Shown here in pieces: positions 1 through 63,918 of a DNA stretch of 64,000 nucleotides. Numbering within the stretch: position 1 is the first letter of the stretch; every line of letters starts with the position of its first letter. Origin of the DNA: a virus (lineage: Duplodnaviria; Caudoviricetes); IMG/VR virus record IMGVR_UViG_3300048920_000114, positions 7,769 to 71,768 of that record; one strand, written 5' to 3'. A program made the position numbers and the translations under genes. Below the pieces are notes generated by a model that did no database searches, was not told the DNA's origin, and saw nothing but the letters and a program-made list of their open reading frames with translations.

Positions 1-863
1 GCGTCAGAACCGATGGTACCCACGACGATGTCGCCTTGGTGGTCGTCGGCCGAGACCGGGACGTGCCTGGACAGAAGCGGCTGGCGGTTGAACGTCTCCG
101 CGGCCTTCTTCAACTCGTCCGGATGGCGCAGCAGCTTGTAGATCTTCTTCGGGTCGAGGCCGAGCTTCTCGTGGTTCGGGATCTCGCTCCCGAGGTACGG
201 GTTCACGCCCGCCTTCGAGATGTTGCTCTGCTGGACGTGCAGCCGACCGTCGGTGTCCTTGGTGCGGACCGACTTGTTGTCGTAGGGCAGGCCGCCCCTG
301 TTCATCTTGTCGACGCGCGGGTCGATGCCGTCCGGCGCGCGGTCCATCGCGATTCCGAAGAACTCGGCGATGTCGACGTCCTGCCGGCGCTCGGCCAGCC
401 GATCGAGGCGATTCTCGATCTTCAGACCGTTCAAGGTTTTCTCGACCTGCGGGTGCAGCGGCTCGGGAAGGTTGCCGGGCTTCACCCAACGATAGGCCGT
501 GTGTTCGTCGTTCAGCGTCGGCGTGAAGCGATCCTTCACGACACAATGGAAAGTGTGAAACACCATGCCGGTCGGGGTCTCGACCTCGCTGACGCAGACC
601 ATCGGGTCCGTCGCCAGATAGCCGACCTCCTCGCGCGCCTCGCGGATGGCTGCTTCCTCGGGGGTCTCGCCGGCCTCGGCCTTGCCGCCCGGGAGCGACC
701 AGTGGCCGCCGTAGTTCAGTTCGTCCTTCGACCGCTTGACCAGCAGCACGCGACCGTCGTTCTCGAACACGATCCCCGCCGCGATCGGCGCGCGGTCGAG
801 CGCGAGCGCCCCGGAGACGAGGAACGGGAAGATGCAGGTGCTGGTCAGGCCGCGAACGCGCAT
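1..863 (-). CDS. Nudix hydrolase fused to DUF2213-type putative prohead protease (3' end runs off the window; not in the ORF track)
   Basis: Manual translation from ATG 863, coupled TGATG to the GNAT stop: [26 protein letters not shown]... It has a perfect Nudix box [24 protein letters not shown] (about 620-690), then [32 protein letters not shown]...[24 protein letters not shown], typical of DUF2213. Confidence 0.9.
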
Positions 864-1297
864 CAAAGCTGTGGAACCTCTAGGGTGAGGGTGACCGCCT
901 GCTGGGCGAACCCGGTCTTGCGGTAGACCTCAAGAGCGTTTTTGTTTCGGACGTGCGTGGCGAGCTGGATCTTGACCAGCTTCAACTCGATGGACTTGGC
1001 GATCGCGAAGTTCAGCATCTCGGTGAAGACGCCCTGTCCGCGATGCTCCTCGACGACGAAGGCCTGGTAGATCCACATCGTCTTCGTCGGCTCGATCGTG
1101 TCCCAGGTCAGCACGCCGACCGCCTCGGGCTCGTGGCCGTCCTTCACGTAGGCGACGAAGGCCTTGTAGCTGAAGTGCATGTTCAGATCGCCGGAACCGA
1201 AGCCGTTCTGCTCGCCGTGAAGCCATCCTGCGACGGCGAGCTGCGAAGCCGGCGCCGCGTTCATGCTGTCGAACAGTTTGACCTCGATCTCGGCCAC
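863..1297 (-). CDS. GNAT-family acetyltransferase
   Basis: Acetyl-CoA motif [12 protein letters not shown], then [13 protein letters not shown]. Confidence 0.85.
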
Positions 1298-1301
1298 CCG
1301 G

Positions 1302-1466
1302 TCAGATCCTTCCGACCAGCAGCAGGATCAACAGGATCACCACGACCAGGCCGAGCCCGCCGCCCACGCCGTAGCCGCCGCCGTAGAACGGGCCGCCGCC
1401 GATGCCGCTGAAGCCGCCCAGGAGAGCGATGATCATGATGATCAGGATGATGGTTCCGAGGGACAT
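1302..1466 (-). CDS. DUF3309-like small membrane protein (54 aa)
   Basis: Manual translation MSLGTIILIIMIIALLGGFSGIGGGPFYGGGYGVGGGLGLVVVILLILLLVGRI: two hydrophobic helices around a Gly/Tyr loop, with RBS ggaggt upstream. Confidence 0.8.
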   Translation of the reverse strand: MSLGTIILIIMIIALLGGFSGIGGGPFYGGGYGVGGGLGLVVVILLILLLVGRI

Positions 1467-1470
1467 GGGG

Positions 1471-1698
1471 TTACCTCCGGGCGCCGACGGCGCGCTTCTT
1501 GGCGACGTTGCCCTTGATCGCGGTGTGACCGATGGCGCCGGCAGGGCCGGCCTTGTCCTGCTCGCGGACGAAGCTGTTCAGGTCGAACTCTCCCGGCTTG
1601 GCCTTCGGGACGGCCAGCTCGGCCGCGCTCCCGCTCACGGCGAAGGCCAGCGCGAACCACGCCACCGTCGCCAAAGTCAGGGCCTTCTCGATCGACAT
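1471..1698 (-). CDS. Small secreted/membrane protein (75 aa)
   Basis: MSIEKALTLATVAWFALAFAVSGSAA looks like a signal peptide; start re-set to the internal ATG 1698. Confidence 0.55.
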   Translation of the reverse strand: MSIEKALTLATVAWFALAFAVSGSAAELAVPKAKPGEFDLNSFVREQDKAGPAGAIGHTAIKGNVAKKRAVGARR

Positions 1699-1776
1699 AG
1701 ACGGGTTTCCGCGTTCTCTGCCCGCGATCCCTCGCACACTCGATGCTCGCGATGCAAGAAAATCCGTTCCGGAACG

Positions 1777-1830
1777 AAAAAAGCCCCCGACTGCATCACC
1801 TCCAAGTCGAGGGCTGGTCGGGGGCTTTCT
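1777..1830. terminator. Large hairpin, probable bidirectional intrinsic terminator
   Basis: aaagcccccgac ... gtcgggggcttt inverted repeat with an A-run on the left and a ttt/ctct run on the right. Confidence 0.6.
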
Positions 1831-2076
1831 CACGGGTCTTTTCCCGTCTGTCATCGCGGAGCCGCGCCGCGCTCGCCTACTCGAACCCCTCGTCAGGTGG
1901 CCAATGGTTGCTGTGCCGTGGCTGACGTCTGTCTCTGGTTCTTTCGCTCGGGATCTCTCCGGACGACGCACGAGGACCGCCTGATCCCCGCGAGATGTCG
2001 CCGGTTCGGGAACGCTGCTTTAGGTCAAGGACGGCGATCCTTGCCCCGGTCGTTCCGACATGTCTCGTCTCTACAC

Positions 2077-2104
2077 AAAAAATCCCCGGCTGTGAACCGG
2101 GGAA
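2077..2104 (-). terminator. Intrinsic terminator
   Basis: aaaaaat-ccccgg-ctgtgaa-ccgggg gives a GC stem followed by a U-run on the minus strand, downstream of the small-gene cluster. Confidence 0.7.
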
Positions 2105-2203
2105 GTTTGCGCGGTCGGGCGTTCACAGATCCACAGAACACGCCGCCGAAGCGGGTTTTGCTGTTTCACTCGAACGGTCGAAGCTTAGACCCTGTCGCCA
2201 GGG

Positions 2204-2407
2204 TCAGGCCAGTGGCTTCGTCACCGTCACCGTCGGGGTGTGTCGCCCCATGTGGTCGAGGCCGATGTTGAAGTTGATCGTCATTCCCTGAGCCTTGGCG
2301 AGATCCATCAGGCCCATCGTGACGCGCAAGCTGTCCTCGACCTTGCGTTTGATCTCCTGGGCGTGGACTAGCATCTGGTCTTCCGTCGTCGGGGTCATGC
2401 TGGTCAT
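2204..2407 (-). CDS. Hypothetical protein
   Basis: MTSMTPTTEDQ... with ATGA coupling to the upstream stop. Confidence 0.6.
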   Translation of the reverse strand: MTSMTPTTEDQMLVHAQEIKRKVEDSLRVTMGLMDLAKAQGMTINFNIGLDHMGRHTPTVTVTKPLA

Positions 2408-2571
2408 AGGATCTTGCTCACTGTCCATGCGGCGAATAGGGAAAGGGCGATCAAAGCTAGAACCGGAAGGTCCAGCAATCTGACCAGGAGGTCTGATGCT
2501 CGGAACCAATGCCGAACCCTGAGACGACGATGCTTCCACGAGTTGTGATAGATGACAGGTCTAACCTTCAT
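2404..2571 (-). CDS. Small membrane protein (55 aa)
   Basis: MKVRPVIYHNSWKH...LPVLALIALSLFAAWTVSKIL; coupled start/stop with both neighbours. Confidence 0.5.
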   Translation of the reverse strand: MKVRPVIYHNSWKHRRLRVRHWFRASDLLVRLLDLPVLALIALSLFAAWTVSKIL

Positions 2572-2654
2572 CTTCGTCGTCTCCGTTCCTTCGGCCACCG
2601 GGGTCGGGTGAGCCAGAACAGCATGGCGGAGACGAAAAGGCAAAAGCAGACCAT
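2568..2654 (-). CDS. Tiny membrane peptide (28 aa)
   Basis: MVCFCLFVSAMLFWLTRPRWPKERRRRR: hydrophobic helix plus basic tail, ATGA-coupled. Confidence 0.4.
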   Translation of the reverse strand: MVCFCLFVSAMLFWLTRPRWPKERRRRR

Positions 2655-2657
2655 GAC

Positions 2658-2918
2658 TCAGTCCACCTTCTGCGGGTGCATCATCACCGATTTGTTGTCG
2701 TCGAACATCGAGATCGGCGGGCCGGGGTCAGATGGTCCGAGCTTCATCACAGAGTTGCTGTAGTTCATCACCCCATCTGGAGTGCGGAAATATCGTCCAT
2801 AGGAACGCTCGTGCCGCAGGCCAGCGACCTCGCGGGCGTGCGTCTTTTTCTGCGCGTTGAAGCCGATGGCCATAAACGCGAGGCCGATGATGGCGAGTGC
2901 GAATCCTGCTTCGAACAT
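2658..2918 (-). CDS. Membrane-anchored hypothetical protein
   Basis: N-terminal TM MFEAGFALAIIGLAFMAIGF. Confidence 0.6.
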   Translation of the reverse strand: MFEAGFALAIIGLAFMAIGFNAQKKTHAREVAGLRHERSYGRYFRTPDGVMNYSNSVMKLGPSDPGPPISMFDDNKSVMMHPQKVD

Positions 2919-2921
2919 GGC

Positions 2922-3080
2922 TCAATCCTTCTCCTCTGCTGCGATGATCCTCTCCGCGTCCATGACCTGCTGGAGCGTCAGCGGCTTGTGCGCGCGGTAC
3001 CGCTCGACGAGCTCCTCGCTCGTGTACTGGATCAGGTCGGCGTCCCGGTGATGGTGGTTGTAGGCGGCGCTGTTCGTCAT
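2922..3080 (-). CDS. Hypothetical protein (52 aa)
   Basis: MTNSAAYNHHHRDAD..., coupled to the upstream stop. Confidence 0.55.
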   Translation of the reverse strand: MTNSAAYNHHHRDADLIQYTSEELVERYRAHKPLTLQQVMDAERIIAAEEKD

Positions 3081-3301
3081 TGGAGCGGGTCCCTGTACTG
3101 CGAGCATTTCTGCTTCACTTCCATCGGTTCGAGGCTCAACCGCTTCAGAGCATAGTTGGCTCCGTCGCCGAAGCCGCAGACGTAAGCCTCGCTTGTAGAT
3201 CCGGACGTCGCCGCGCGGATGTGGCCGACGACCAGCCCGGCGCAAAACATAGAAACCACCAGCACAACCTGGACGGCGACGAACGTGATCTTCGGGTTCA
3301 T
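3077..3301 (-). CDS. Membrane-anchored hypothetical protein (74 aa)
   Basis: MNPKITFVAVQVVLVVSMFCAGLVVG TM segment; ATGA coupling. Confidence 0.6.
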   Translation of the reverse strand: MNPKITFVAVQVVLVVSMFCAGLVVGHIRAATSGSTSEAYVCGFGDGANYALKRLSLEPMEVKQKCSQYRDPLQ

Positions 3302-3726
3302 CGCTTGCGCTCCCACGGCTTGCGCTTCATCGCCACCCACGGCCTGTCGTGGTCGCGCTTCGGCTCCTTCAACATCAGCTCGGTCGGCGCCTTCAGATCC
3401 CGCATGTAATCGTGGATCGGGTCGATCAGGATGACCTTGTAGAGACCGTCCTCGAGGAACTGGACGGCGTACTCGACCGAAATGTCGCCCTGCCCGAGGT
3501 CCACCCCGTAGATCATGCCGTCGGGGATGACCGCTCCGGGCTCTGCCGTCGTGGTGATCGACCTGTTCTTCAGCCCCATGTCCTCGCAGCCCTCGACGCC
3601 GTACATCAGGCGCTGTCGATCGTGCAGCCACCCTTCGGAGAAGTGCGGCGCGAGCGCCAGCAGCAGCGCGTCGATCCGGTCTTCCGGACAGGGCGTTTTC
3701 TTTCCTTCGTGATCGTCCTCCGTCAT
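3298..3726 (-). CDS. Hypothetical protein
   Basis: MTEDDHEGKKTPCPEDRID..., with phage-like codon use and coupled starts. Confidence 0.65.
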   Translation of the reverse strand: MTEDDHEGKKTPCPEDRIDALLLALAPHFSEGWLHDRQRLMYGVEGCEDMGLKNRSITTTAEPGAVIPDGMIYGVDLGQGDISVEYAVQFLEDGLYKVILIDPIHDYMRDLKAPTELMLKEPKRDHDRPWVAMKRKPWERKR

Positions 3727-3818
3727 GACCCCATCCAGTTCATCGCTATGCGGATCAGCACGACCGCGATGATCCCGAGCCACACGAGCTCGCCGCTGTA
3801 TCTCTTGATCAGGTTCAT
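3723..3818 (-). CDS. Tiny membrane peptide (31 aa)
   Basis: Manual translation MNLIKRYSGELVWLGIIAVVLIRIAMNWMGS; fills the gap with ATGA overlaps on both sides. Confidence 0.55.
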   Translation of the reverse strand: MNLIKRYSGELVWLGIIAVVLIRIAMNWMGS

Positions 3819-4294
3819 CGTGCCCTCGCTCTGATGAAGGCGTCCGCCGCGGCGAAGGCCTTGGTTGCGATCTCGTCGAAGTCGACGGGCATGAACGCCG
3901 CCGCGGTCGACTGATCAGCCCTGACGAAGTTTCTCTCCAGCATGCGCTGGTTGTGCTCGAGCCCGTCCTTGATCAGGGTGGGGAGGGCGGCGAGCGCAGC
4001 AGCGTCGCGCACGGACATGCCCGGGAACGACTCCGTAGCCTCAGATCCCGAGAAGGGGTGTGGCGAAAACCACTGATGGCCGTTCGGGCTGATCGGCTGT
4101 CCGGTGGTGTAGCTGTGCGTGAAGTCCGGCATCGGAATGCCGGAGAACGGCCGCGTCGACGGGTAGGCCGGGCCGCCGTCGTCCTTGCCGGGCTCGACCC
4201 GGTTGATCGTGACCCTGATCAGATCTCCGACCTTCTGCGGGAGGTCGACGGCGTTCGCCCAGACCGTCATCCCTATCGCGTTCTCGACTCTCAT
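3815..4294 (-). CDS. Hypothetical phage protein
   Basis: Contains DDGGPAYPS...GMSVRDAAALAALP...IATKAFAAADAF, a pattern common in small phage early proteins. Confidence 0.7.
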   Translation of the reverse strand: MRVENAIGMTVWANAVDLPQKVGDLIRVTINRVEPGKDDGGPAYPSTRPFSGIPMPDFTHSYTTGQPISPNGHQWFSPHPFSGSEATESFPGMSVRDAAALAALPTLIKDGLEHNQRMLERNFVRADQSTAAAFMPVDFDEIATKAFAAADAFIRARAR

Positions 4295-4509
4295 GGCTGC
4301 ACCGCTGCAGCCGCGTCTTTCGCAGGCATGTTTGCTGTGAACAGGTTTTCTGCGAGCTGACGTGCCATCGCCTCGCTGGATGCTCCGCCTGCCTCCTGAT
4401 CGTCGACGAAAATGACGGTCTCGCCACCCGAGGTCTTCATTTTCAGCCTGCGACCATCAGGCAGGGTCGCGGTGTGCAGCTTCTTCGTGATCTTGCGCCA
4501 GTTGATCAT
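4291..4509 (-). CDS. Hypothetical protein
   Basis: MINWRKITKK..., coupled to both neighbours. Confidence 0.6.
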   Translation of the reverse strand: MINWRKITKKLHTATLPDGRRLKMKTSGGETVIFVDDQEAGGASSEAMARQLAENLFTANMPAKDAAAAVQP

Positions 4510-4910
4510 GGTTTCCATCCCTTCTCAGTGTGAAATTGCGCGTGACCACCCGACGGGTTGGGGCGCGTGTATCCTTCTCGTCCTGTCAGCACCATCCCGC
4601 GCTTCAGCGGCTCGAAGCCGGGCTGCCAGTCTACGCAAAAGCCTTCGTTCAACGTGCTGAACAGGTAGATCGTGTAAGCGACGCGACAAACCCGACCACC
4701 TTCGGGCGTCGTGAGCCATTCGCCCTGATCGAACACGATGCTTCTGCGGTCCTCCTCGGGACGAGGCGCCGGCGCCTCTCGGCGGTAGAACAGCATGTTG
4801 AAGACGATCGCCCCGATGAACGCGATCAGGATGAATGCAGGGAAAGACGGAAACGAAAAACCCCCGCTTTCGCGAGGGTCTCGTTCGCCGTTTTGCGGCG
4901 ATGGGTTCAT
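4506..4910 (-). CDS. Membrane-anchored hypothetical protein
   Basis: RBS ggaggacacc before ATG 4910; TM PAFILIAFIGAIVFNMLFY. Confidence 0.65.
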   Translation of the reverse strand: MNPSPQNGERDPRESGGFSFPSFPAFILIAFIGAIVFNMLFYRREAPAPRPEEDRRSIVFDQGEWLTTPEGGRVCRVAYTIYLFSTLNEGFCVDWQPGFEPLKRGMVLTGREGYTRPNPSGGHAQFHTEKGWKP

Positions 4911-4970
4911 GGTGTCCTCCGACGTTTGATGCGCAGCGGTGAAGTCGCTTTCCAGCGGCCGGAACATGCT

Positions 4971-5003
4971 CTATCCGCCGAGGATGTCAACTGAGCGGAT
5001 AGG
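4971..5003 (-). promoter_or_regulatory. Promoter/operator of the inserted small-gene cluster
   Basis: TTGACA on the minus strand lies inside the inverted repeat CTATCCGC-N16-GCGGATAG; also contains the 19-bp motif CCTATCCG-CTC-AGTTGACA. Confidence 0.55.
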
Positions 5004-5011
5004 CATCACAG

Positions 5012-5043
5012 AAAAAGCCCCGCCTGGGGGTTGGCGGGGCTTC
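5012..5043 (-). terminator. Intrinsic terminator
   Basis: aaaaagccccgcc-tgggggtt-ggcggggctt. Confidence 0.75.
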
Positions 5044-5112
5044 CTGGGGTGACAATTTGGGACTTCACACTTGCGCGCGACGAGTCTGGAAACGCCGCGC
5101 GATGTCAGGAAC

Positions 5113-5427
5113 CTACGTCCGGATCTCGGGCTCGTCAACGTTGGCGCAGTCGACCGTTCGGCCCTTCCTGATGTAGCCGTGCCAGCAGGCTCCGCAGTTG
5201 ATCGAGGGGCTGAAGGTCGGCGACTCGCGGTTGCCGTCCCAATCCCACTGCGCGTGCCCGCCGTTCTTGTTCTGACCGTCGCGCTTGACGTCGGTCCTGC
5301 CGGCGATCAGCAGCGACCCGCAAGGCCGCTTGCGCTTCGGACAGGCGAAGTCGAAGTAGGCTTCCTGTCCCGGAGCGGCGTTCTCGTTCAGATCCTTGTC
5401 GAGGAAGGTGACCTTGGCGTCGGCCAT
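5113..5427 (-). CDS. DUF6527-like Cys/His protein
   Basis: WDWDGNRESPTFSPSINCGACWHGYIRKG motif; GTGATG coupling to the MuF stop. Confidence 0.65.
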   Translation of the reverse strand: MADAKVTFLDKDLNENAAPGQEAYFDFACPKRKRPCGSLLIAGRTDVKRDGQNKNGGHAQWDWDGNRESPTFSPSINCGACWHGYIRKGRTVDCANVDEPEIRT

Positions 5428-6263
5428 CACGAGAATCCTTTGATCATGGCGCGGGACACGCATTTGCAGTTGATCAGCTCGCCGGGCTGTATCCACTGGT
5501 TCACGGCGGGGTCGAACCAGCCCTTGGCGACCTCGTATACGACGCGATCCTTCCCGGCCTTCAGATGGGTGGGGCGGGGGTGCTTGCCGCCTCCGGAGTG
5601 AACCCACACGGCCGTCGTGACGCCTATCTCCAACTGCCGCGCCTTGTTCATCGCGGACGTCGCTTTGTTGTTCTGGTCGCGCGCGATCAGCTGGGCCCGA
5701 CGCTTCGTGACGCCGTAGTTCTTCTCCAGGCCCTTCGCGAGCGTGCCGAGGTCGCGGCCGGCCTTGACCGACTGCATCACCTGAACCTCGACGTTCTTCA
5801 GGTACTGCTGCGGGATCGATTTGATCAGGGCGACGTTCTCGGAGATCGTGGCGTTCAGGACGTCCCGCATCGCGGGCGTCATCGTGAACTTCACCGTGAA
5901 GCCGCCCTTCTTCAAGATCCGGGCGAGCTGCGCGTCGGTCCGCTTGTAGGCGGCTTTGCTGAAATACTTCGCGAGGTCGTCCGCGGCGTCGTCGAACGCG
6001 CGCAGCCATCGCTTCGAGAGGCGCCTGATCGCGGTGGTCAGGATGTTCGCCGGCATGTCGTCCAGCGCCATCTCCGGGCTGTAGTCCATCGCCATGATCG
6101 GGGTGTTCTGGTTGTACTTCGCTTCGAGCCAGTAGGTGACCGACTTGTTCATCTCCTCGGTCAGCTTCACCAGCTTGCGGCGGTACTCGACCTCGAGGCC
6201 GACGTTCGGGTGCAACGGCGCGAGCGTGACGTCCTTCGGCTTCTTCTTGGGCGCGCGGGCCAT
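5427..6263 (-). CDS. Phage head morphogenesis protein (MuF / SPP1 gp7-like), short form without a toxin extension
   Basis: RAQLIARDQNNKATSAMN...WVHSGGGKHPRPTH...PGELINCKC motifs; position after the portal. Confidence 0.9.
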   Translation of the reverse strand: MARAPKKKPKDVTLAPLHPNVGLEVEYRRKLVKLTEEMNKSVTYWLEAKYNQNTPIMAMDYSPEMALDDMPANILTTAIRRLSKRWLRAFDDAADDLAKYFSKAAYKRTDAQLARILKKGGFTVKFTMTPAMRDVLNATISENVALIKSIPQQYLKNVEVQVMQSVKAGRDLGTLAKGLEKNYGVTKRRAQLIARDQNNKATSAMNKARQLEIGVTTAVWVHSGGGKHPRPTHLKAGKDRVVYEVAKGWFDPAVNQWIQPGELINCKCVSRAMIKGFS

Positions 6264-6493
6264 CAGGCTTCGAGATCCATGACCCGCTGCGACATCTCGG
6301 CATGGACGGTGCGGACTCGGTCGAGGCTTTTGTGCATGTCCGTTCGGACGAGGGGTAGCTGTTGCGCGTGTTCGAGATCCTTGACCATGCGGTCGAACAC
6401 GACGGCGACGGCTTTGAAGTAAGCGGCGTCGACGGCGCGCATCAGATCCGATCGGTTGTCGTTGCCTTCGAGGATCGTCATGCGGTCAGCCAC
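6263..6493 (-). CDS. Hypothetical protein
   Basis: Coupled ORF in the head operon. Confidence 0.6.
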   Translation of the reverse strand: MADRMTILEGNDNRSDLMRAVDAAYFKAVAVVFDRMVKDLEHAQQLPLVRTDMHKSLDRVRTVHAEMSQRVMDLEA

Positions 6494-6770
6494 GGTCGCC
6501 TCCCGGCTGAAACGTAGCGGTCGACGAAGCCGCCGAGCCCTCCTCGCCGCGCTCCCCCGGAGGGTTGTTCCCTCCCGCCATGTCGCGCAGCGCGTCGTCG
6601 AGGTCCTTCATGTCGCCCTCGGCCTGGGTCAGCGCCGACTCGTGCTTCTCGAACACCTCGTTCGCGCGGCTGTCGAAGCTGTCGACCCGGAGCGCCAGGT
6701 CGTCGGCGCGTTGGTCGAACTTCTTGCGGGTTTCCGCGACGCGCGCGGCGAGGGCTTGGAACTTGTTCAC
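6486..6770 (-). CDS. Coiled-coil hypothetical protein
   Basis: GTG start at 6770 with RBS aaggag; heptad-rich sequence. Confidence 0.6.
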   Translation of the reverse strand: MNKFQALAARVAETRKKFDQRADDLALRVDSFDSRANEVFEKHESALTQAEGDMKDLDDALRDMAGGNNPPGERGEEGSAASSTATFQPGGDRG

Positions 6771-6877
6771 GACTCGATCTCCTTGACGATCTTGACGGCT
6801 GCCCAGCACGCGCCGGCGAGGAAGCCGACGCTGAACCAGATGGGAAGGATCAGTAGCAACCACCACGCGCTGATCAC
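6767..6877 (-). CDS. Small membrane peptide (36 aa)
   Basis: Manual translation MISAWWLLLILPIWFSVGFLAGACWAAVKIVKEIES. Confidence 0.5.
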   Translation of the reverse strand: MISAWWLLLILPIWFSVGFLAGACWAAVKIVKEIES

Positions 6878-6881
6878 GGCG

Positions 6882-7085
6882 TCAATCCTCCAGGTCGGAG
6901 TAGTCTTCCTCGTAGAGATCCGGAGGGACGAGCTCGGGCTCGATGATCTCGTCGTCCTCGCCGACCTCGTTCAGGCCGTTCTCGCCCATGCCCGGAGGAG
7001 GGGCGGCCTCGGTGCGCTCCGCGAACCCGGCGAGGACCTCCTCGTCGGTCGGGACGCCTTCCTGCTTCTTCTTAGAGCTTGCCAA
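6882..7085 (-). CDS. Small acidic protein, candidate immunity partner of the portal ART domain
   Basis: 67 aa, very rich in D/E; overlaps the ART stop by 14 nt and has an RBS ggagga. Confidence 0.55.
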   Translation of the reverse strand: MASSKKKQEGVPTDEEVLAGFAERTEAAPPPGMGENGLNEVGEDDEIIEPELVPPDLYEEDYSDLED

Positions 7086-7510
7086 AGTTCACCTCCTCCA
7101 GCGTGATCTTGTTGTCGACGTTCGAGATCACCTTGAACCGCGTCCCGGCCTTGAACAGGACCTCGGCCTCGCCCGGATAGTGCGACAGCTTGGAGATGTC
7201 CCGGCCGGTCTTGCCCTTGACCTCGAACCGCGTGTTGCCGCCGAAGCCGCTCGCCGTGCTCGTGCTCGTGAAGCCGCGCTCCTCGATGATCATGCCCGGC
7301 TTATACATGGCGACCTGTTCCTTGGACAGGGTCGCGCCCCGGCGCGTGGTTCCCTCGTAGGTCGGCATCGTGTCGAGCGCCTTGTTCAGCGACGCGGCGA
7401 ACTTGTACTGCTCCTCGGTCATGATGCCGGCGCGAAGCTGGTTGTTGACCTCGCGGTAGTACGAGCCGCTGTAGGCCATGACCTGCGCGGCGTCGCCCGG
7501 CGTCATCTTC
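7072..7510 (-). other. ADP-ribosyltransferase domain (R-S-E class)
   Basis: AYSGSYYREVNNQLRAG...TRRG...GFTSTS...GEAEVLFKAGTRFKV. Confidence 0.88.
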
Positions 7511-10500
7511 TCGTAGGCCTTGCCGAGCGTCTTCAGCTTCTTCGCCGCGTTCGCGATCGCGGCCTTGGCGTTGCCGCTCAAGATCCCGTTCAGGGCCTCG
7601 TAGTGTTCCTTGGCCTCCGGGCTGTTCAGCGACGCCTCGAAGTCGGCCGCCTCCTTCTTGGCCTGCTCCTCGGCAGCCTTCTGCGCGGTGGTCGCCTTGT
7701 TGGCCTGGTCGACGTAGTTCTTCGACACCTCGAAGTTCTTCTCGACGGTCTTGTGATGCGACTTCGCGAGCGCGGTCGTCTCGGTGGGCGACAGGATGTT
7801 CTTCGCGTTTTCGACGGTGCCGCCGACCTGGGCGACTGCCTTGATCTTCTCCTTCGCGACCGTCTCCGGGTTCTTCATCGCCTCCGCGCTGAAACCCTTG
7901 GTGTTCTGCTGGAACTTCTCGAACGCGGCCTTGATGGTCGCGACGTCGGGGCCTTTCGACTTCTCGACCACCGCGGCCATGCCCGGGTTGTCCTTCAGCG
8001 CCTGCTCGGCGACCTTGGTGGTGACCGACGGCTCGGCAGGCTTCGCCGCCATCGGCGCGGCGTACGCGTTCGGGAGCTTCAGGTCCTGCTGCTGCTTGGT
8101 CGCGGCGTTGAACAGCTTCTCCAGCTTCTTCTTCTCGCCTGCGTCCGTGGCCGCGCTGAACTCGTCGGACAGCTTGTTCTTCACGGTGGCGAGCGCCTGG
8201 AACAGATGGGCCTTCAGACCCGTGACGCCGGCAGCGCCCAGGCCGTTTGCCTCGGCGCCCTCGATCAGCTTCTTCAGCATGTTCCGGTAGTGGGTGCCGG
8301 ACTTCGCGGGCTGTCCGAGATAATAGGCCGCGGTCGCGTGATAGTCGGCCTTCTCGCCCTTGCCGGTGTCCTTCCAGAGCCCGCCGAACGCGGTGACCTT
8401 CTTCGCGGCCTTGCCGGCCTTCTCGCCGGCCGGGGCGCTGGACGAGCCCGAGCCGGTGCCGAACTTGCCGTCCGGAGCGCGCGGGTGGTCAGACTCGTTC
8501 CACGTCGCCTCGTCCTGCGCCTGCTTCTTCGAGACGTCGATGATCTTGGCCGGGACGGAGATCCCGAGCGCGGCGCCCGTGGCGAGCCGCGTCTGTCCGG
8601 CCATCAGGTGCAGCTTGCCGTCCTTCTTCAGGATGATCGGCGGCGCGGTCTTGCCTTCCTTCATCTCCTTGATGATTCGCGCGCTGTCCCGGCGATGGCT
8701 GAAGGTGTCGTGAATCCACTTCTCGTTCTGGCCGAGGCCCTGCGCGGCCATCGAGTTGCCGAGCTGCTTCAGCTCCTTCTCGCTCAACGGCTCGACCGGC
8801 GCGGCGTCGTACTTGGCCTGGAAGTCCTCGCGGGAGGCGAACGCGTCGGGGAAGCGCGGCTTCGAGTATTTCAGATACTCGGTGCCGTACTCCCAATCGA
8901 GCTCCTTCGGGGTGTAGTCCCGCATCTTCTCGGGCGGGTGCGACTTCAGCTTCCCGAGGTCCTTGCCGCCCTTGACGGTGGTCGCGGAAGATCCCGACGA
9001 GCCTGATCCGGACGTGAACTTGCCTCCGTCGCGCGGGTGCTTGCTCTCGTCGAACTCAGAGTCGCCGGAGACGAGAAAAGGGACCACGCCGTCCTGCGCC
9101 GGCGCGTCCTTCCCTGCAGGGGGGTTCTTCGGCTTCTTCTCGCCGGTCGCGGGGCTGTTCTCGCCTTCCCCGGCGTCGTCGTCACCCTCGTCGCCCGTGC
9201 CGTCGTCCACGCCCTCCGCTGGAGGATCTGGAACGTCCTCGACGTCGATCCCGGCGTAGCCCATGTCCGGATCGTCCGCGACGCGGCGCCGCTCCTCGAT
9301 CGGGTCGATGGTTCCGTTGCCGATCAGGATGTCGCCGGTCTCGGCCTCGAGCTTCTTGACCTCCGCGCGCTCCTTGTCGGACAGGGACCACAGCGGCTCG
9401 AACGAGAAGGTGATCTCGGGGTCGATCTCGTTCCAGAGCGAAAGCTGGATCATCTGGATGATCGTCGTCAGCGGGTCCCGGAAGATGTTCTCCTGAGAGG
9501 CGTGGACGAAGTCGTAGAAGATCCGGACCTCGGCCTCGGACGACGCGTTCAGGCCCTTCGGCTGCAAGCCGAGGAGGATGGCCACCGGGATCGACGACAC
9601 CGACGCCATCTGCTCCTGAGCCTGGGCTTGCAGGGCGTCGAGCGTGCCCAGCGGGGTCGAGATGTTGAAGAACTCCTCGGTCTCCTTGTCGAGCGCCATC
9701 GAGCCGCTGTTCGTGCGGATCAGGTTGAACAGCTCCAGGCGGTCGAGGACGCTGTCGTCGCCTTCTCCGTCGCCGGCCTGAAGCACCGAGGCCATGTTCG
9801 TGTAGATGCCGCTGACCGAGAACGACTCGATCAGGTCGCAGACCGCCTGACGCGTGCGCAGCCAGTTGTCGACGTAGGGCTTCGCCATCTGCGACATCGC
9901 GAGGCCGCCGAACGCGTACGCGGGCTTCAGGATGTCGGGGACCTCGCGGCCGACCAGCGTCAGGAAGCGCGAGGCGTGGACGGGCGTCGCCATGACGTAC
10001 CACGTCGCGGGCTTGTACCAGTCGGCGCGCAGCGGGTCGGTCGAGTTGTAGTCCTGGGGGTAGGCCCACATCGGCTCGACGTTGCGGATGGCCTTCAGCG
10101 GGGTCTTCTTGCTGACCTTGCCCTTGCTGTTGTGGCCGCTGCCGATCGGCGTGCGCAGCTCGGTCGTCTCTGTGTCGACGCCGATGGCGCCCACGTCGAG
10201 GAAGATGTGGCCGCGCCCGAAGGCGTTGTCGTGCTCGGCCGCGACCCGGAAGACGTCGCGGACCTTCAGGTCCGTCATCCGCTTCTGGATGTCCTTGATC
10301 TTCGCGCCCTTCTCCTCGGAACGCTTCTTCTTCTCCGCGTCGTCCAACTCGCCATCGACGTCGCTGGTCACTTCGAGCTTGATCCACTTGCGGGTCATCT
10401 CGGTCGCGACTTTTTCGATGATCTTGCGGTACTCGGGCCGCTGCGTCAGCTCGGCCAGGTACGGGTAGCCGAGGAACGTCGTCCCCTCGGCGAACTGGAT

Positions 10501-10839
10501 TCCGTTGCCCCACGCCCAAGTGTTGACCGCGCTGACCGTGGACGTGCCGACCGGCATCTCGTCCATGGCGAGGGTCGCGGCGCCTTTCGGCAGCACGCCG
10601 GGCGCGGGCTTGAACGCCTGGAAGATGTTGGGCTTCGCCGCGATCGCGTTCCTGTTCTTGCGCTCGATCTTGCGGTGCGCGCTCTCCAGGGCTCGCCGGC
10701 TGACCTTCATGCGGCCCCTCGGCTTCGGCTGCTCCTCGGCCTGCGCCGGCTGCTCGGCGCCGTCGAGGTACTGCGTGATCCCCTTCAGGATCTCCTTGGT
10801 CGGGTCCGACGAGGGACGCTTGGTGCGGTTCACCGTCAT
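7072..10839 (-). CDS. DUF1073-family portal protein fused to a ParB/Srx-like domain and a C-terminal ADP-ribosyltransferase
   Basis: Portal core FLGYPYLAELTQRPEYRKI...IPVAILLGLQPKGLNASSEAE...FEPLW directly follows terL. The C-terminus has the VIP2-like R-S-E triad TRRG / FTSTS / EAEVLF. Confidence 0.92.
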   Translation of the reverse strand: MTVNRTKRPSSDPTKEILKGITQYLDGAEQPAQAEEQPKPRGRMKVSRRALESAHRKIERKNRNAIAAKPNIFQAFKPAPGVLPKGAATLAMDEMPVGTSTVSAVNTWAWGNGIQFAEGTTFLGYPYLAELTQRPEYRKIIEKVATEMTRKWIKLEVTSDVDGELDDAEKKKRSEEKGAKIKDIQKRMTDLKVRDVFRVAAEHDNAFGRGHIFLDVGAIGVDTETTELRTPIGSGHNSKGKVSKKTPLKAIRNVEPMWAYPQDYNSTDPLRADWYKPATWYVMATPVHASRFLTLVGREVPDILKPAYAFGGLAMSQMAKPYVDNWLRTRQAVCDLIESFSVSGIYTNMASVLQAGDGEGDDSVLDRLELFNLIRTNSGSMALDKETEEFFNISTPLGTLDALQAQAQEQMASVSSIPVAILLGLQPKGLNASSEAEVRIFYDFVHASQENIFRDPLTTIIQMIQLSLWNEIDPEITFSFEPLWSLSDKERAEVKKLEAETGDILIGNGTIDPIEERRRVADDPDMGYAGIDVEDVPDPPAEGVDDGTGDEGDDDAGEGENSPATGEKKPKNPPAGKDAPAQDGVVPFLVSGDSEFDESKHPRDGGKFTSGSGSSGSSATTVKGGKDLGKLKSHPPEKMRDYTPKELDWEYGTEYLKYSKPRFPDAFASREDFQAKYDAAPVEPLSEKELKQLGNSMAAQGLGQNEKWIHDTFSHRRDSARIIKEMKEGKTAPPIILKKDGKLHLMAGQTRLATGAALGISVPAKIIDVSKKQAQDEATWNESDHPRAPDGKFGTGSGSSSAPAGEKAGKAAKKVTAFGGLWKDTGKGEKADYHATAAYYLGQPAKSGTHYRNMLKKLIEGAEANGLGAAGVTGLKAHLFQALATVKNKLSDEFSAATDAGEKKKLEKLFNAATKQQQDLKLPNAYAAPMAAKPAEPSVTTKVAEQALKDNPGMAAVVEKSKGPDVATIKAAFEKFQQNTKGFSAEAMKNPETVAKEKIKAVAQVGGTVENAKNILSPTETTALAKSHHKTVEKNFEVSKNYVDQANKATTAQKAAEEQAKKEAADFEASLNSPEAKEHYEALNGILSGNAKAAIANAAKKLKTLGKAYEKMTPGDAAQVMAYSGSYYREVNNQLRAGIMTEEQYKFAASLNKALDTMPTYEGTTRRGATLSKEQVAMYKPGMIIEERGFTSTSTASGFGGNTRFEVKGKTGRDISKLSHYPGEAEVLFKAGTRFKVISNVDNKITLEEVNFGKL
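8440..8520 (-). repeat. Cargo-leader peptide repeat, copy 2
   Basis: AQD-EATWNESDHPRAPDGKFGTGSGS. Confidence 0.8.
9001..9099 (-). repeat. Cargo-leader peptide repeat, copy 1
   Basis: AQD-GVVPFLVSGD-SEFDESKHPRDGGKFTSGSG. Confidence 0.8.
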
Positions 10840-12173
10840 GGCAGGCGCCGTGAGCGAGCCATGCCGCGGGCTCGTTCGAGGGCGGATTTGTTGACCTTCA
10901 TCGGGAGCCTCGCGTGGGTCTTGTGCATGACGGCGAGGGCCAGCGACATGACGCAGTCGTCGTGGAACCCTTCCGGCGCGGAATATCGCACGCCTGTCCG
11001 CGTGTATTCAAACTCAAACTGATCGAGTTCCTGCTTGATGACGCCGTCCGGGAAGGCGACCTGACCGTTCTGGATGGCGACGGCGAGGCCCTCCATCAGC
11101 TTCTGCTTCGACGCCGGGGTGAAGGTGTAGCCCTCGTAGCGCGAGCCCGGGTCCTTCTGCAGACTCTCGGTGATGGCGTCGCCGACGCCCGTGTCGTCGA
11201 CCAGAGCGGGCTTCTTGCGCACGATGGAGTGGATGTTCGTGGTGATCGATTCCCACGTCGGGCCGCCGCCGCCCCATCGCCCGAATCGACAGACGCGCCC
11301 GTGGACGTCGAGGCCGGTGACGACCGTGTAGTCCTGCTTGCGCGCGAGGTCGACGCCGAAGACGACGGGTTCCGACTGGACGACGGCGGGGATGACGCAC
11401 TTCGCGATGTGGTGCAGGCCGAACGGGTTTCCGCCGTCGTCGCTCGGCTCGGCCAGGTAAAGCTCGCGGAACACTTGCTCGGGGAGGACCGACTTCGCGT
11501 CGTCGATCTCCTCCTGGTCGAGGACGCCCGCGGCCACGGCGTCGAGCGCGGTGATCTTGTGGTAGCCGATCTGCGGGTCGTTCTTCGCCTCGCCCTTGCG
11601 GGCCATCGTGTAGAACCAGTTCCGCCGACCCTTCACGTTGCCGATCAGGCGGATCTGTCCGCGCGTGGCGGTCAGGGTCGAGCGCACGGCGTACCAGGCG
11701 GCCTCCTTGACGCGGGAGGCTTCATCGATGACGGCGGCGTAGACGTCCTCGCCGTACAGGCTGTCGGGCTTGTCGGCGGACTTGAACCACATGACCGCGC
11801 CGTTGATCAGCGTGATCGTCTTCAGCGTGATGTTGGCGACGCCGATGTCCGGGGGAAGGGCGCGCAGGCAGCGGCGGAAGGCGATGTCGGCCTGTCCGGA
11901 GACAGGCGCCACCCACCAGAAGTTATGGCCCTCCTTGCCGTGCAGCGCCTTCTCGGTGAACCAGACGATGCAGCCCGAGGTCTTGCCGGCCTTCGTCGAG
12001 GCCTCGATGCAGCTGTACCGGCGCGGGTCGTAGATCGCCTGGAACTGCTTCTCGTAGAGGAACGGTCGCTCGAACTCGAGGAGATACTCCTCGATGTCGA
12101 TGGTCGCGCCCGTGGAGCCGGGCGGAAGCTCGAACTCGTCTTCCGGATCGAGCAGTTCCGCCTCGGCAAGCAT
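10836..12173 (-). CDS. terL: Terminase large subunit
   Basis: Walker A EASTKAGKT, Walker B AAVIDEA, GNVKG coupling motif, nuclease FGVDLARKQD and HDDCVMSLALA. Confidence 0.93.
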   Translation of the reverse strand: MLAEAELLDPEDEFELPPGSTGATIDIEEYLLEFERPFLYEKQFQAIYDPRRYSCIEASTKAGKTSGCIVWFTEKALHGKEGHNFWWVAPVSGQADIAFRRCLRALPPDIGVANITLKTITLINGAVMWFKSADKPDSLYGEDVYAAVIDEASRVKEAAWYAVRSTLTATRGQIRLIGNVKGRRNWFYTMARKGEAKNDPQIGYHKITALDAVAAGVLDQEEIDDAKSVLPEQVFRELYLAEPSDDGGNPFGLHHIAKCVIPAVVQSEPVVFGVDLARKQDYTVVTGLDVHGRVCRFGRWGGGGPTWESITTNIHSIVRKKPALVDDTGVGDAITESLQKDPGSRYEGYTFTPASKQKLMEGLAVAIQNGQVAFPDGVIKQELDQFEFEYTRTGVRYSAPEGFHDDCVMSLALAVMHKTHARLPMKVNKSALERARGMARSRRLP

Positions 12174-12174
12174 G

Positions 12175-12570
12175 TCAGCCCTTCACGTCGTCCAGGGCTT
12201 CCCAGGCTGCTTGGCTCATGACGAACGGGTCGTCGGCGGGCTCGTCGGTGTTCCGAACCATGCACCACCCGCTCGTCATCCCCATCAGGAGCAGGACGTC
12301 GCCGTTCTCCTCGTGCTTGCGCGTCGGGATGTTGCGCCACTCCAGCGTCGGCGCGACAGGCGGCAGGCCGTCCATCTCTGCGGCCATCTGGAGCAGCTGG
12401 ACGCCGCGCGAGGCCGTTCCGCCCGTCACTGTCGTCGAGGGGGTGTCGATGCGATCGATCGTCATATCCATCCCGGAACCATCCGCCTTCGGCGTCCACG
12501 TGACGTCGGCGGTCACCCCGTTGACCTCGGGGATTTCTTTGCCTCGCTCGTACCGTGCGATCTCCGTCAT
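12175..12570 (-). CDS. Hypothetical protein between terS and terL
   Basis: Coupled to both neighbours, with phage-like codon use. Confidence 0.65.
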   Translation of the reverse strand: MTEIARYERGKEIPEVNGVTADVTWTPKADGSGMDMTIDRIDTPSTTVTGGTASRGVQLLQMAAEMDGLPPVAPTLEWRNIPTRKHEENGDVLLLMGMTSGWCMVRNTDEPADDPFVMSQAAWEALDDVKG

Positions 12571-61625: not shown

Positions 61626-63359
61626 TTACTGGACCGCGATGCTTTCGAGGTCGATGGACTGGACCGCCTGCCCGTCGACGTACCAGAAGATCATCGGCGG
61701 CGAGCCGCGGTTCTGGCGAACCTCCGGGGTGGCGTCGAGGATCTGAAGGTACCAGCCGCGCGTGCTCAGGGTCGACGCGATGTCGCGGCCGGCCTGCGCG
61801 TTGATGGCGGCGATCTGGTCGGACGACAGCGTGACGCCCGGCTGGAACGCACCGAAGGCGAGGCCCTGGTTGATGACGTCGGACAGCGACGCCTCGATCT
61901 TGGCGTAGCCCGCCGAGGTGTACGGGATGGCGCGCGTGTTCACGAGCAGCTGCACGAGCGCGAGCTGGAGCGCGTTGTTCAGCCAGATCTGGTTGATGTA
62001 GCCGTCGAGCCACTTGTACTCGCCCGAGACCGTGCCGTCGGCGAACCACAGGAAGTCGTCGTTCGCGGTCGCGTAGGCGCCGTAGCAGTTGTAGCCGTTC
62101 GCCAGCAGGTTCTGCAGGGTCGTGATGTCCGACACCGCCGCGACGAGGCCGGCCTGACGCTTGAACTTGAAGGTGATGCGCCCGCCGATCTGCTCGAAGT
62201 CGATCGAGGCGATCGATCCGAGGACGAACGCGGCGTGGTTCATGTCCTCGTTCTCCCAGATCGGACACGTTCCGTTGTAGCCCGCGCTGATCACCTGGTT
62301 GGCGAAGCTGCCCGTCGCCGGGACCTGCGTGGTCGGCGACGCGTCGGTGTCCCAACCGATGTAGGCGTACCGCTTGTTCGTGCCGTTCGCCCAGGCCGCG
62401 AAGGCGAGCTTGTTCGCGAACCCGCTGGCGTCCGGGTTGAAGGTCGTGGTGAAGGCCGCCCAGTTCTGCGTGACGTTCACGACGCCGGCCATGAAGCCTC
62501 CCGGCGTGGCGGCGTCGGCGCCGGGTGAGATGACCGCTCCGGTCGACTGCGTCATCTTCAGAGCGACCGCGACCGAGCCCGAAGCGTAGCCGATGGTGGA
62601 GTCGACTCCGGCCGTTCCGGACGCGACTACGAAGGCGGCCGCCACGGGGTCGAAGGTCACGGCGGGGAAGTCGGTGGTCAGCGGCTCGGACGAGACGGCC
62701 TGGCTGTTGTTCACGGTGTAGGTGCCGGGGCCGCCGACGCCGGTGCCGAGCGCGGTGATGTAGGTGTTCGCCGCGACGCCGGCGCCCTTGACGATGTGGC
62801 CGACCTCGATCTCGCCGTCGGTCACCGCGGTCACGGTCATCACGTTGGCCGAGATAGATCCGGTGAAGGACGCGGCCTGGGAGCCGTCGATCGACAGCGC
62901 GGTGCCGATGATCATGGCGGCGTTCGAGAACGAGGTCGCCGCCGCGAGGTTCGGCGTGCCGGTCTTGTCGACGCCGTCGATCGTGACGTTGAACGGGCCC
63001 GACAGGGCCTGAAGCTGGGACAGCGTCATCGTCGAGATGTTGCCGCCGCGCAGCCACGCCGAGACGTCGTCCTGGTTGTACTGAGCGAACAGGATGGCGC
63101 CCGGCTTCTTGTTCGAGCCCTCGAAGCCCCCGAAGTAGCCGGAGCCCATGTCCGGGCCGCCGCCCGCGAAGATCGCCTCGGGCGAGGTCGGGCCGAAGTA
63201 GGTCTTCACCGCCTGGGCGCTGCCGAGACGGAGGATCGTCCCGACCGGTACGCGGTCGTCGTTCGTCAGGACGAGGCCGTTCAGGTCCAGCGCGGAACCG
63301 CCCGCGCTCAGGACGTTCGGCGTGACGTTGACGACTACGTTGGCCGGGATCGTGCTCAT
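61626..63359 (-). CDS. Tail sheath protein (DUF3383)
   Basis: MSTIPANVVVNVTP...QNWAAF...ASIDF...GRITFKFK...NCYGAYA...WLDGYINQIWL. Confidence 0.9.
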   Translation of the reverse strand: MSTIPANVVVNVTPNVLSAGGSALDLNGLVLTNDDRVPVGTILRLGSAQAVKTYFGPTSPEAIFAGGGPDMGSGYFGGFEGSNKKPGAILFAQYNQDDVSAWLRGGNISTMTLSQLQALSGPFNVTIDGVDKTGTPNLAAATSFSNAAMIIGTALSIDGSQAASFTGSISANVMTVTAVTDGEIEVGHIVKGAGVAANTYITALGTGVGGPGTYTVNNSQAVSSEPLTTDFPAVTFDPVAAAFVVASGTAGVDSTIGYASGSVAVALKMTQSTGAVISPGADAATPGGFMAGVVNVTQNWAAFTTTFNPDASGFANKLAFAAWANGTNKRYAYIGWDTDASPTTQVPATGSFANQVISAGYNGTCPIWENEDMNHAAFVLGSIASIDFEQIGGRITFKFKRQAGLVAAVSDITTLQNLLANGYNCYGAYATANDDFLWFADGTVSGEYKWLDGYINQIWLNNALQLALVQLLVNTRAIPYTSAGYAKIEASLSDVINQGLAFGAFQPGVTLSSDQIAAINAQAGRDIASTLSTRGWYLQILDATPEVRQNRGSPPMIFWYVDGQAVQSIDLESIAVQ

Positions 63360-63369
63360 GTGATTTTCC

Positions 63370-63918
63370 TCATGATGCGGGGAACTCCACCTCGACGCTC
63401 TTTGGTACGATCGTGAGCGTGTCGGCGTATTGCTGCGGGAAGATCACCTTCGGGTCGACCTGCAAGGAGATCTCGACGATCCAGCGGTCCTCGTACTGCT
63501 GCTCGCCGTTGCCGGCGAACGGAAGCTGGCGAGGGTCGCTGGCGTAGAGCGGCGAGATGCCGGGGCTGTTCGTGCTGAAGAAGTCGACCGCCCACTCGTC
63601 CTTGACCATCGTCGTGACGATCTGGACGCCGTCGCCGCCGAGCGGGCCGTGGACGTCGAGCTGGTAGTCGAACTGTGTTTTCTGCGTCACCGTGGTCGTG
63701 GTCGGAAACTGGATGACGCTTTTGTCGAACTCGTCGATGTTCGTGGCGAGGCGCGTTCTGTGAACCGGCGTCATCAGGACGTAGTTCGGCGAGGTCGGCT
63801 CCGGGACCCGGTTGTCCTGCGCCTGCACGACCTCGAACTCGCTCGGCATCACGGCGACGAGGAAGCCTCGCAGCGCAGTGACGACGGTGTCCTCGGTCGG
63901 GGCGACGGTCAGAGGCAT
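63370..63918 (-). CDS. Tail terminator/neck protein
   Basis: VVQAQDNRVPEP...YQLDVHG...PLYASDP...QYEDRW. Confidence 0.75.
   Translation of the reverse strand: MPLTVAPTEDTVVTALRGFLVAVMPSEFEVVQAQDNRVPEPTSPNYVLMTPVHRTRLATNIDEFDKSVIQFPTTTTVTQKTQFDYQLDVHGPLGGDGVQIVTTMVKDEWAVDFFSTNSPGISPLYASDPRQLPFAGNGEQQYEDRWIVEISLQVDPKVIFPQQYADTLTIVPKSVEVEFPAS

Follow-up and report, generated by a model that had tools for sequence, protein, structure and literature searches.

A-x-D sites in a Bcep781/PB1-like phage head suggest that a DUF2213 prohead protease frees enzymes fused to the portal and to itself

Introduction

In phage T4 the prohead protease gp21 cuts after glutamate in L/I-x-E and processes a packaged ADP-ribosyltransferase (ART), Alt, and the T4 internal proteins illustrate that folded domains of 17–50 kDa cannot exit through capsid pores. 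Here we analyze a variant of this T4-style theme of protease-processed packaged enzymes in a tailed phage from IMG/VR (record IMGVR_UViG_3300048920_000114), of whose single 71,768-base contig we took the 64,000 bases from 7769 to 71768 (hereafter the window; G+C 61–69%). Its portal protein carries a ParB/Srx-like domain and an ART at the C terminus, its DUF2213 protein carries a Nudix domain at the N terminus, and a short motif, A-x-D, recurs at the joints, here and in hundreds of relatives, at which the head-maturation protease probably frees the fused enzymes inside the capsid.

This system resembles that of T4 gp21 (for which the T4 facts are established knowledge) in the fold of the protease (Z 10.9), in an acidic residue at P1 with a hydrophobic or small one at P3 (P1 is the residue before the cut, P2 and P3 those preceding it, and P1′ the first after it), and in the use of one motif for capsid, scaffold and packaged enzymes, with an ART among the cargo (Alt, beside IPI–III) and, by our reading, expulsion with the DNA. 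It differs in having aspartate rather than glutamate at P1 and alanine at P3, in cargo that is covalently fused to the portal C terminus or the protease N terminus and has no short N-terminal capsid-targeting sequence, and in a protease that bears its own scaffold tail.

Fusions of portal, MuF and protease to effectors, with injection proposed, are already known. In its available text, Iyer 2017 (PMC5512222) describes portal-effector and MuF-effector fusions, and Iyer 2022 (PMC9503650), likewise in its available text, describes Nudix domains fused to MuF, to the portal and to the capsid-processing serine peptidase, along with ARTs fused to the portal, and proposes injection; ParB-like domains are cargo there as here. 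An earlier note on this DNA had presented carriage on portal and protease rather than on MuF as a novelty, in which it was anticipated by both the 2022 paper and the portal-effector fusions of the 2017 paper. Unlike the present analysis, the same portions of these papers contain no cleavage motif and no junction cassette, and assign release to a metallopeptidase or to Hint autoproteolysis.

Among the closest described heads are those of the Pbunaviruses KPP12, E217 and Pa193, which have homologous capsid, decoration, portal, MuF and DUF2213 proteins, a capsid protein cut after SAMD64, and four A-x-D in the gp24-type tail. They differ in a portal extension without a Pfam-recognized ART or Nudix domain, and the structure papers, in the sections available, leave the question 'cleaved or disordered' open and do not call gp24 a protease. 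Pfam now calls PF09979 (DUF2213) Pa193_gp24; the 'putative scaffolding protein' behind this name is not read as a protease in the available part of its paper. Burkholderia phage Bcep781, with gp17 (portal plus Nudix) and gp14 (head maturation protease), shares the head module and likewise has A-x-D before its Nudix cargo (GAQD572↓, where ↓ marks an observed or predicted cut), at the end of its capsid leader (EYAMD34↓) and at four places in its scaffold tail; its Nudix domain sits on the portal rather than on the protease, and it has neither an ART nor a ParB-like module.

Results

All head genes of this phage lie on the minus strand, in the order large terminase (TerL), portal, MuF, further genes, protease-scaffold, decoration and capsid, and the module is of the Bcep781/PB1-like myophage type. 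The portal-cargo fusion (7072–10839; 1255 amino acids (aa), defined by its open reading frame (ORF) and Pfam) consists of an N-leader, the portal domain, an acidic linker, a first cassette, the ParB/Srx-like domain, a second cassette, a region without assignment and the ART. The Nudix-DUF2213 gene starts at base 866 (TTG) or 863 (ATG), occupies bases 1–866 with its 5′ part, and extends 1146 bases past the window start; translating the rest of the contig gave a full protein of 670 aa, with the Nudix domain at about residues 27–142, DUF2213 at 201–368, and a 300-residue tail. Next come a decoration protein of the XM1-gp53 type and a 363-aa major capsid protein (phrog_264), whose gene lies 2254–3345 bases before the window start.

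Translation of the genes recovered all eight sites named in the earlier note, together with a hexapeptide, PFLVSG, shared by two of the proteins. In the portal, LAMD93↓EMP (10561–10572) is a predicted cut site in the N-leader, PAQD583↓GVVPFLVSGD593↓ (9061–9102, with last bases 9091 and 9061) contains two candidate cut sites on either side of PFLVSG, and QAQD776↓ (last base 8512) is a further candidate. MuF, a head-morphogenesis protein of 278 aa (5427–6263; Pfam Phage_Mu_F and phrog_324), carries MAMD60↓ (6084–6095) and MALD68↓ (6060–6071). In the Nudix protein, LALD24↓RAP (795–806) follows the PFLVSG leader and IAMD175↓RAP (342–353) precedes the protease domain, which begins at about base 296 and runs downward; the two lie on either side of the Pfam NUDIX match, so that the claimed bracketing of the Nudix segment (342–794) held. 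PFLVSG occupies residues 587–592 of the portal and 14–19 of the Nudix protein. We rejected a recent DNA duplication as the source of the repeat because the copies share merely 11 identical bases; it is instead a conserved peptide in close relatives.

Beyond the window, the scaffold tail of the DUF2213 protein has six further sites, at residues 407, 449, 482, 555, 598 and 650, and the capsid protein, for which the earlier note had proposed looking for a leader of this kind, has one ending in QIAMD44↓AQPQ. Two more A-[MLQ]-D, absent from the earlier list, occur within folded portal domains at residues 384 and 1156; because they are not conserved even in the 74–80% identical relative P0122, they are probably chance occurrences. 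VSGD593, conversely, is not an A-x-D, yet we take it to be a real site because a junction cassette (described below) directly follows it, making it a true member of that cassette.

To gauge chance expectation we counted A-[MLQ]-D against 5000 shuffles of each sequence. The portal has five where 1.08 are expected (P = 0.006), MuF has two against 0.26 (P = 0.025), and the full Nudix-DUF2213 protein has eight against 0.87, a number reached by none of the 5000 shuffles. Portal, MuF, Nudix-DUF2213 and capsid together have 16 against an expected 2.5, and the highest shuffle gave 10. With crude gene calls for the whole contig, five head proteins, amounting to 14% of the proteome, account for 20 of the 40 A-[MLQFY]-D (binomial P = 1e-7). 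Elsewhere on the contig, a 241-aa protein encoded on the minus strand 4609–5334 bases before the window start (contig 2434–3159), downstream of the capsid and adaptor genes, has A-[MLQFY]-D at Asp 64, 175 and 200; it has no confident family match, only weak coiled-coil-type Pfam matches, and may be another processed head protein. Two minus-strand ORFs, at 61626–63359 (577 aa) and 63370–63918 (182 aa), have one N-terminal A-x-D each (Asp 25 and Asp 35, respectively), which may mark propeptides or be due to chance.

Cutting after A-x-D is experimentally anchored in a homologous head. The major capsid protein of KPP12 (PB1-like) virions has the Edman N terminus SNFTAPV… (PMC3474789), which is the KTN6 capsid homologue from residue 65 onward, and the mature protein thus begins directly after GSAMD64. 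In the cryo-electron-microscopy models of E217 and Pa193 the capsid protein begins at residue 66, and the E217 authors, in the text available, leave open whether the N terminus is 'cleaved or disordered'. Capsid leaders end in EYAMD34↓A in Bcep781, GSAMD64↓S in KTN6, TIAMD31↓S in WCHABP12, GIAMD67↓A in MyoSmar and LAMD↓A in Asa56, and in an alignment of 18 capsid proteins, with identities as low as 39% (Bcep781) and 27% (KTN6), the aspartate never varies. In a set of 120 closer capsid relatives we counted A-M-D↓A 109 times, and the first 80 residues lack an A-x-D in only one of them. Some leaders (P0083, P0111, Asa56 and Bcep781) have the motif in tandem, as LAMD...IAAD↓A, LAMD...MAMD↓S, MAMD...LAMD↓A and AMDAAD↓. 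A peptide-string search for the predicted mature N termini of other genera found no further Edman anchor, and a sequence-profile search of the PDB did not reach the XM1 capsid, which has 30 residues missing.

The candidate for the cutting enzyme is the DUF2213 protein. The model of its residues 176–400 (mean predicted local distance difference test score, pLDDT, 78.6) best matched the T4 gp21 prohead protease (5jbl; Z 10.9, root-mean-square deviation 2.9 Å over 133 of 164 residues), followed by herpesvirus assemblins (Z 6–7.5), and the top rows of a Foldseek search were from the same families. H268, S320 and H350, which are invariant in 31 sequences, are candidate catalytic residues, and the 300-residue tail aligns with phrog_2229, 'head maturation protease', over the entire length of that profile. 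From the model, the DUF2213 protein is thus predicted to be a prohead serine protease of the gp21/assemblin fold. Because T4 gp21 cuts after Glu in L/I-x-E, the combination of an acid at P1 and a small hydrophobic residue at P3 looks like a habit of this family. The earlier proposal that DUF2213 cuts after A-x-D therefore gains from both the gp21 fold and the KPP12 capsid cut after SAMD64, the proteolysis itself being predicted. Among the papers listed as mentioning DUF2213, none dealt with its function or specificity. A-[FLM]-D-R stands directly before the DUF2213 domain in nearly all proteins of the family, including the versions with N-terminal cargo, and those with an N-terminal Nudix domain often carry a second site, as IAMD175↓RAP is here. 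In the Aeromonas phage vB_AsaM-56 record (NC_019527), an annotated 2736-base minus-strand 'hypothetical protein', gp56, covers the plus-strand protease-scaffold, decoration and capsid genes.

We extended the counts to homologues, using the 120 best relatives of the portal fusion, 120 protease-scaffold homologues and the 120 closer capsid relatives. A-[MLQ]-D exceeded shuffled expectation in all three sets (589 versus 117 in the protease-scaffold set, 309 versus 143 in the portal fusions and 132 versus 33 in the capsid set), and the reversed motif was at background. The sites are much denser in scaffold tails (13.3 per 1000 aa) than in the protease domain (1.8), and AxD is the most enriched of 400 gapped dipeptides in these tails (z 22); P2 shows a sixfold enrichment of Met and Gln, and P1′ an enrichment of Ala and Ser. 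In the portal, A-[MLQFY]-D stands 10–26 aa ahead of the portal domain in 114 of the 120 relatives, and this N-terminal site is present in Bcep781, KTN6, WCHABP12, MyoSmar and Asa56; the portal core domain of the relatives has a motif density of 0.85 per 1000 aa. MuF has A-x-D at residues 48–71 in six other phages, seven including this one. As judged from these alignments, A-x-D is a recurring site of this head system that is conserved across genera.

The joints of the cargo show a longer signature. In its full form after the portal domain, the joint cassette reads [A/G/S]-x-D↓x-x-[W/F]-x-E-x-x-HPR-x3-G-x-F-G-x-G-G. This genome has exactly two, both within the portal fusion: cassette 1, SEFDESKHPRDGGKFTSGSGSS (8998–9060), after VSGD593, and cassette 2, EATWNESDHPRAPDGKFGTGSGSS (8449–8511), after QAQD776, in each of which the linker [W/F]xExxHPRxxxGKFxxGSGSS directly follows a candidate cut site. 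We encountered no free-standing cargo with a capsid-targeting peptide of the T4 type; the cargo is fused, and no other ORF of the genome has a cassette. Among the portal-fusion relatives the linker cassette occurs in 117 copies in 86 of 120, and an A-x-D lies 5–13 aa upstream of 108 out of the 128 HPR..GxF motifs that relatives contain. The cassettes and the portal middle regions had no Pfam match, a paper on MuF toxins makes no mention of the HPR motif or of cleavage, and a paper on P1 gives no shared motif. Neither the junction cassette nor the A-x-D specificity of the DUF2213 protease family did we find described.

The cassette behaves as a unit in relatives. In P0122 the joint reads AKD↓GVVPFLVSGAPDRVALD↓EAKWDESKHPR, and the ParB-like module is absent from cassette to cassette, a clean insertion or deletion. 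In Bcep781 a Nudix domain sits on the portal C terminus and is preceded by GAQD572↓. P0370 and P0372 have a cassette plus a ParB-like module at the protease N terminus, and their protein begins M-AWNEGDHPR, which is exactly the predicted P1′. P0277 and P0324 have an ART plus a Nudix domain on the protease. The cargo of the 120 best portal relatives comprises ART, Nudix, Zeta, GNAT, InPase, topoisomerase IB, His_Phos and Hint domains, and the same modules sit on portal C termini or on protease N termini, depending on the phage. Sequence comparison thus indicates that the motif tracks cargo boundaries across many lineages. One portal relative, P0226 (Xanthobacter agilis), a Phage_portal_3 protein of 1160 aa, is named 'anti-CBASS Acb1 family protein', which looks like a propagated misnomer.

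The cargo domains themselves were assigned by profile and by fold. The ART domain (7075–7569; residues 1101–1249 by Pfam) is of the R-S-E type and matches ADPrib_exo_Tox (PF03496) with 42.1 bits (cut-off 23.4) and ART (PF01129) with 33.1 bits (cut-off 22.3). Its nearest solved relative is the Tre1-type ART PDB 6dre/6drh (E 6e-17), a Serratia type VI effector that targets FtsZ. The R, STS and ExE positions align (here RRG, FTSTS and EAEVLF), which bears out the earlier identification of an ART; the difference is that the ART here sits on a phage head, which would deliver it, and not on a PAAR/type VI secretion system spike, and we identified no immunity gene for it. The sites do not bound the ART exactly: the released piece would be residues 777–1255, in which some 310 residues, for the most part without assignment, precede the ART. 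Most of that region (residues 798–1090; 7570–8448) has no Pfam match, accompanies the ART, and is conserved together with it in P0122, P0136, P0140, P0153 and P0156.

The ParB/Srx-like domain (residues 633–776; 8512–8943) was predicted from an AlphaFold model with a pLDDT of 94.8, for which the top ~35 Foldseek rows were almost all of the ParB/Srx fold (sulfiredoxin, ParB, Noc, SbnI and KorB), with a best E of just 6.5e-3; on this model, the earlier suggestion of a ParB/Srx-like enzyme is consistent with the fold. The G and R of the GxxR motif (AGxTR) are invariant among homologues, and a language-model search led to ParB_N with a score of 0.91. Against Pfam, including ParB_N (PF02195) and ddrB-ParB (PF18763), the domain matched no family at E up to 5, and one of 29 homologues reached ParB_N, at E 0.054. 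The Nudix domain matches PF00293 with 85 bits and has an intact Nudix box (Gx5Ex7REUxEExGU). Its nearest solved relatives are nucleotide pyrophosphohydrolases of the MutT/NudI type, so the role of ADP-ribose eraser that it had been offered is unsupported; none of our results ties it to the removal of protein ADP-ribose. The portal thus bears a ParB-like domain and an ART, and the protease a Nudix domain, which places the set among the polyvalent head fusions (Iyer 2017), defined by two or more unrelated effector domains in a single polypeptide that is encoded among portal-terminase head genes.

The remaining parts of the module are as follows. The large terminase (10836–12173, minus strand) precedes the portal gene, whose core domain (residues 110–525; 9265–10512) was identified as Phage_portal_3 (PF06381) over residues 126–501 with 250 bits (cut-off 33.8; E 3.6e-74) and as phrog_146 (E 1e-101). 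Two small minus-strand ORFs lie between the portal fusion and MuF. A minus-strand GNAT acetyltransferase gene (863–1297) ends in a stop codon that shares bases with the start ATG of the Nudix-protease gene (ATGA). It contains neither A-x-D nor cassette; the portal of one relative, P0191, bears a fused GNAT domain. Between MuF and the GNAT and protease genes, about 4 kb (1300–5400) of lower G+C (0.61–0.63) is filled with small minus-strand ORFs that are mostly without assignment, and a PHROGs search of them gave nothing useful. Small genes are likewise clustered here in Acinetobacter phage WCHABP12 and Aeromonas phage 56, so that the position looks like an insertion hot spot. A megablast search of bases 1–12200 against 50,697 phage records for near-identical phages returned only short patches of 75–84% identity in portal genes. 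The relatives include Bcep781-like and PB1-like (Pbunavirus) phages, members of Obolenskvirus, Popoffvirus and Myosmarvirus, and many alphaproteobacterial prophages.

Discussion

In the scheme that we propose, the DUF2213 protein would be a prohead serine protease of the T4-gp21 type with a C-terminal scaffold, cutting after Asp with Ala at P3, mostly Met, Gln, Leu or Phe at P2, and mostly Ala, Ser, Glu or Arg at P1′. It would take off the 44-residue capsid leader, cleave its own scaffold tail at six sites and trim the N termini of portal and MuF, and most likely it would also cut the enzyme joints at the portal C terminus and at its own N terminus. The pieces set free in the shell would be Nudix (residues 25–175), the ParB/Srx-like domain (594–776) and a Tre1/VIP2-type ART with its upstream region (777–1255); their size would keep them in the shell until the DNA carried them out, much as happens with Alt and the internal proteins of T4. 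We infer the cutting of the cargo joints, the retention of the pieces, their injection and the targets of the enzymes, and we hold the scheme as a whole to be reasonably probable. The joint might further be a portable address cassette, which after cutting would form the new N terminus of the cargo and act as a head-retention or ejection signal, with enzymes plugged onto portal or protease; this extension is tentative, and we would not be surprised to see it fail.

Several observations weigh against the release of cargo by cutting after A-x-D. The homologue sets are internally related, and their counts are therefore not counts of independent events. The idea that A-x-D tracks cargo boundaries in homologues, raised in the earlier note, was borne out at 108 of 128 cassettes and fell short for the strict motif, in that A-[MLQFY]-D occurs within 130 aa after the portal domain in just 46 of 120 portal fusions; because the remaining ones have G/S/V-x-D variants or no cassette, the rule would be loose at P3. 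A-F-D-R is retained where just 4–16 residues precede the protease domain, and with so little ahead of it, the element could be structural or autoinhibitory instead of a cut site. Escherichia phage FEC19 (Wifcevirus) has V-G-D at the aligned capsid site and a portal without any A-x-D, as though its lineage preferred a different residue at P3. Finally, portal residues 529–765 of E217 and Pa193 are invisible and could be disordered rather than cut.

The last point leads to the alternative that survives best, in which A-x-D would serve to mature the capsid leader, scaffold, MuF and portal N terminus only, and the cargo would stay tethered to the portal in 12 unfreed copies, to work in place or to be dragged out with the DNA. 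On this account the E217 and Pa193 maps simply do not resolve the portal C-terminal extensions, and it sits comfortably with the modest motif density of such extensions (2.6 per 1000 aa) and with the non-Ala P3 at many joints. We nevertheless consider it unlikely. The joint sites are conserved and the in-domain occurrences are not, the stand-alone or protease-N-terminal versions have the same cassette right after the start Met, the Nudix domain is bracketed on both sides, and P2 varies among M, L and Q across relatives. Moreover, a folded domain of 480 residues on each of 12 subunits would have to traverse the portal channel while still attached.

Release inside the capsid must also be set against a reading in which the enzymes, cut or not, act late in the producing cell or leave with the scaffold, the fusion securing co-expression or stoichiometry and no delivery. 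Iyer 2022 (PMC9503650) puts forward the alternative that such ARTs protect the packaging apparatus from immunity, and injection of the enzymes is something that we, for our part, infer. This reading appears still less likely to us, since fusion to interior-facing proteins puts the enzymes inside the shell, from which, by analogy with T4, folded domains of 17–50 kDa would not pass through the capsid pores, and since the same cargo set (ART, Nudix, ParB-like, InPase, Zeta and topoisomerase) recurs in head-packaged polyvalent proteins. That the motif is no protease site at all and only a compositional or structural quirk, such as a helix cap or assembly contact, could appeal to the Ala- and Asp-rich regions around it and to an A-F-D-R that is conserved ahead of the protease domain even with almost nothing to remove, but we give it hardly any credence and regard it as close to refuted for the capsid site, composition having been controlled by the shuffles and the reversed motif, the KPP12 Edman N terminus falling exactly after A-M-D, and the site being duplicated in tandem in several capsid leaders.

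The predictions are concrete. They turn the idea of injected head-fused enzymes into exact peptide masses that can be checked in existing virion liquid chromatography–mass spectrometry data, and they give, for hundreds of phages, the expected termini of the mature portal, MuF and scaffold proteins and of the cargo. For the capsid protein, the cut resolves what the E217 and Pa193 structure papers posed as 'cleaved or disordered?'. If the cassette is indeed a loading signal, it could be used for putting proteins into capsids, and would be a natural plug-and-play system of capsid protein loading across hundreds of phages. For PF09979/DUF2213, a very large and barely studied family of prohead proteases that includes those of therapeutic Pseudomonas Pbunaviruses and of Acinetobacter Obolenskviruses, the analysis offers a concrete predicted specificity: A-x-D, with the cut after Asp.

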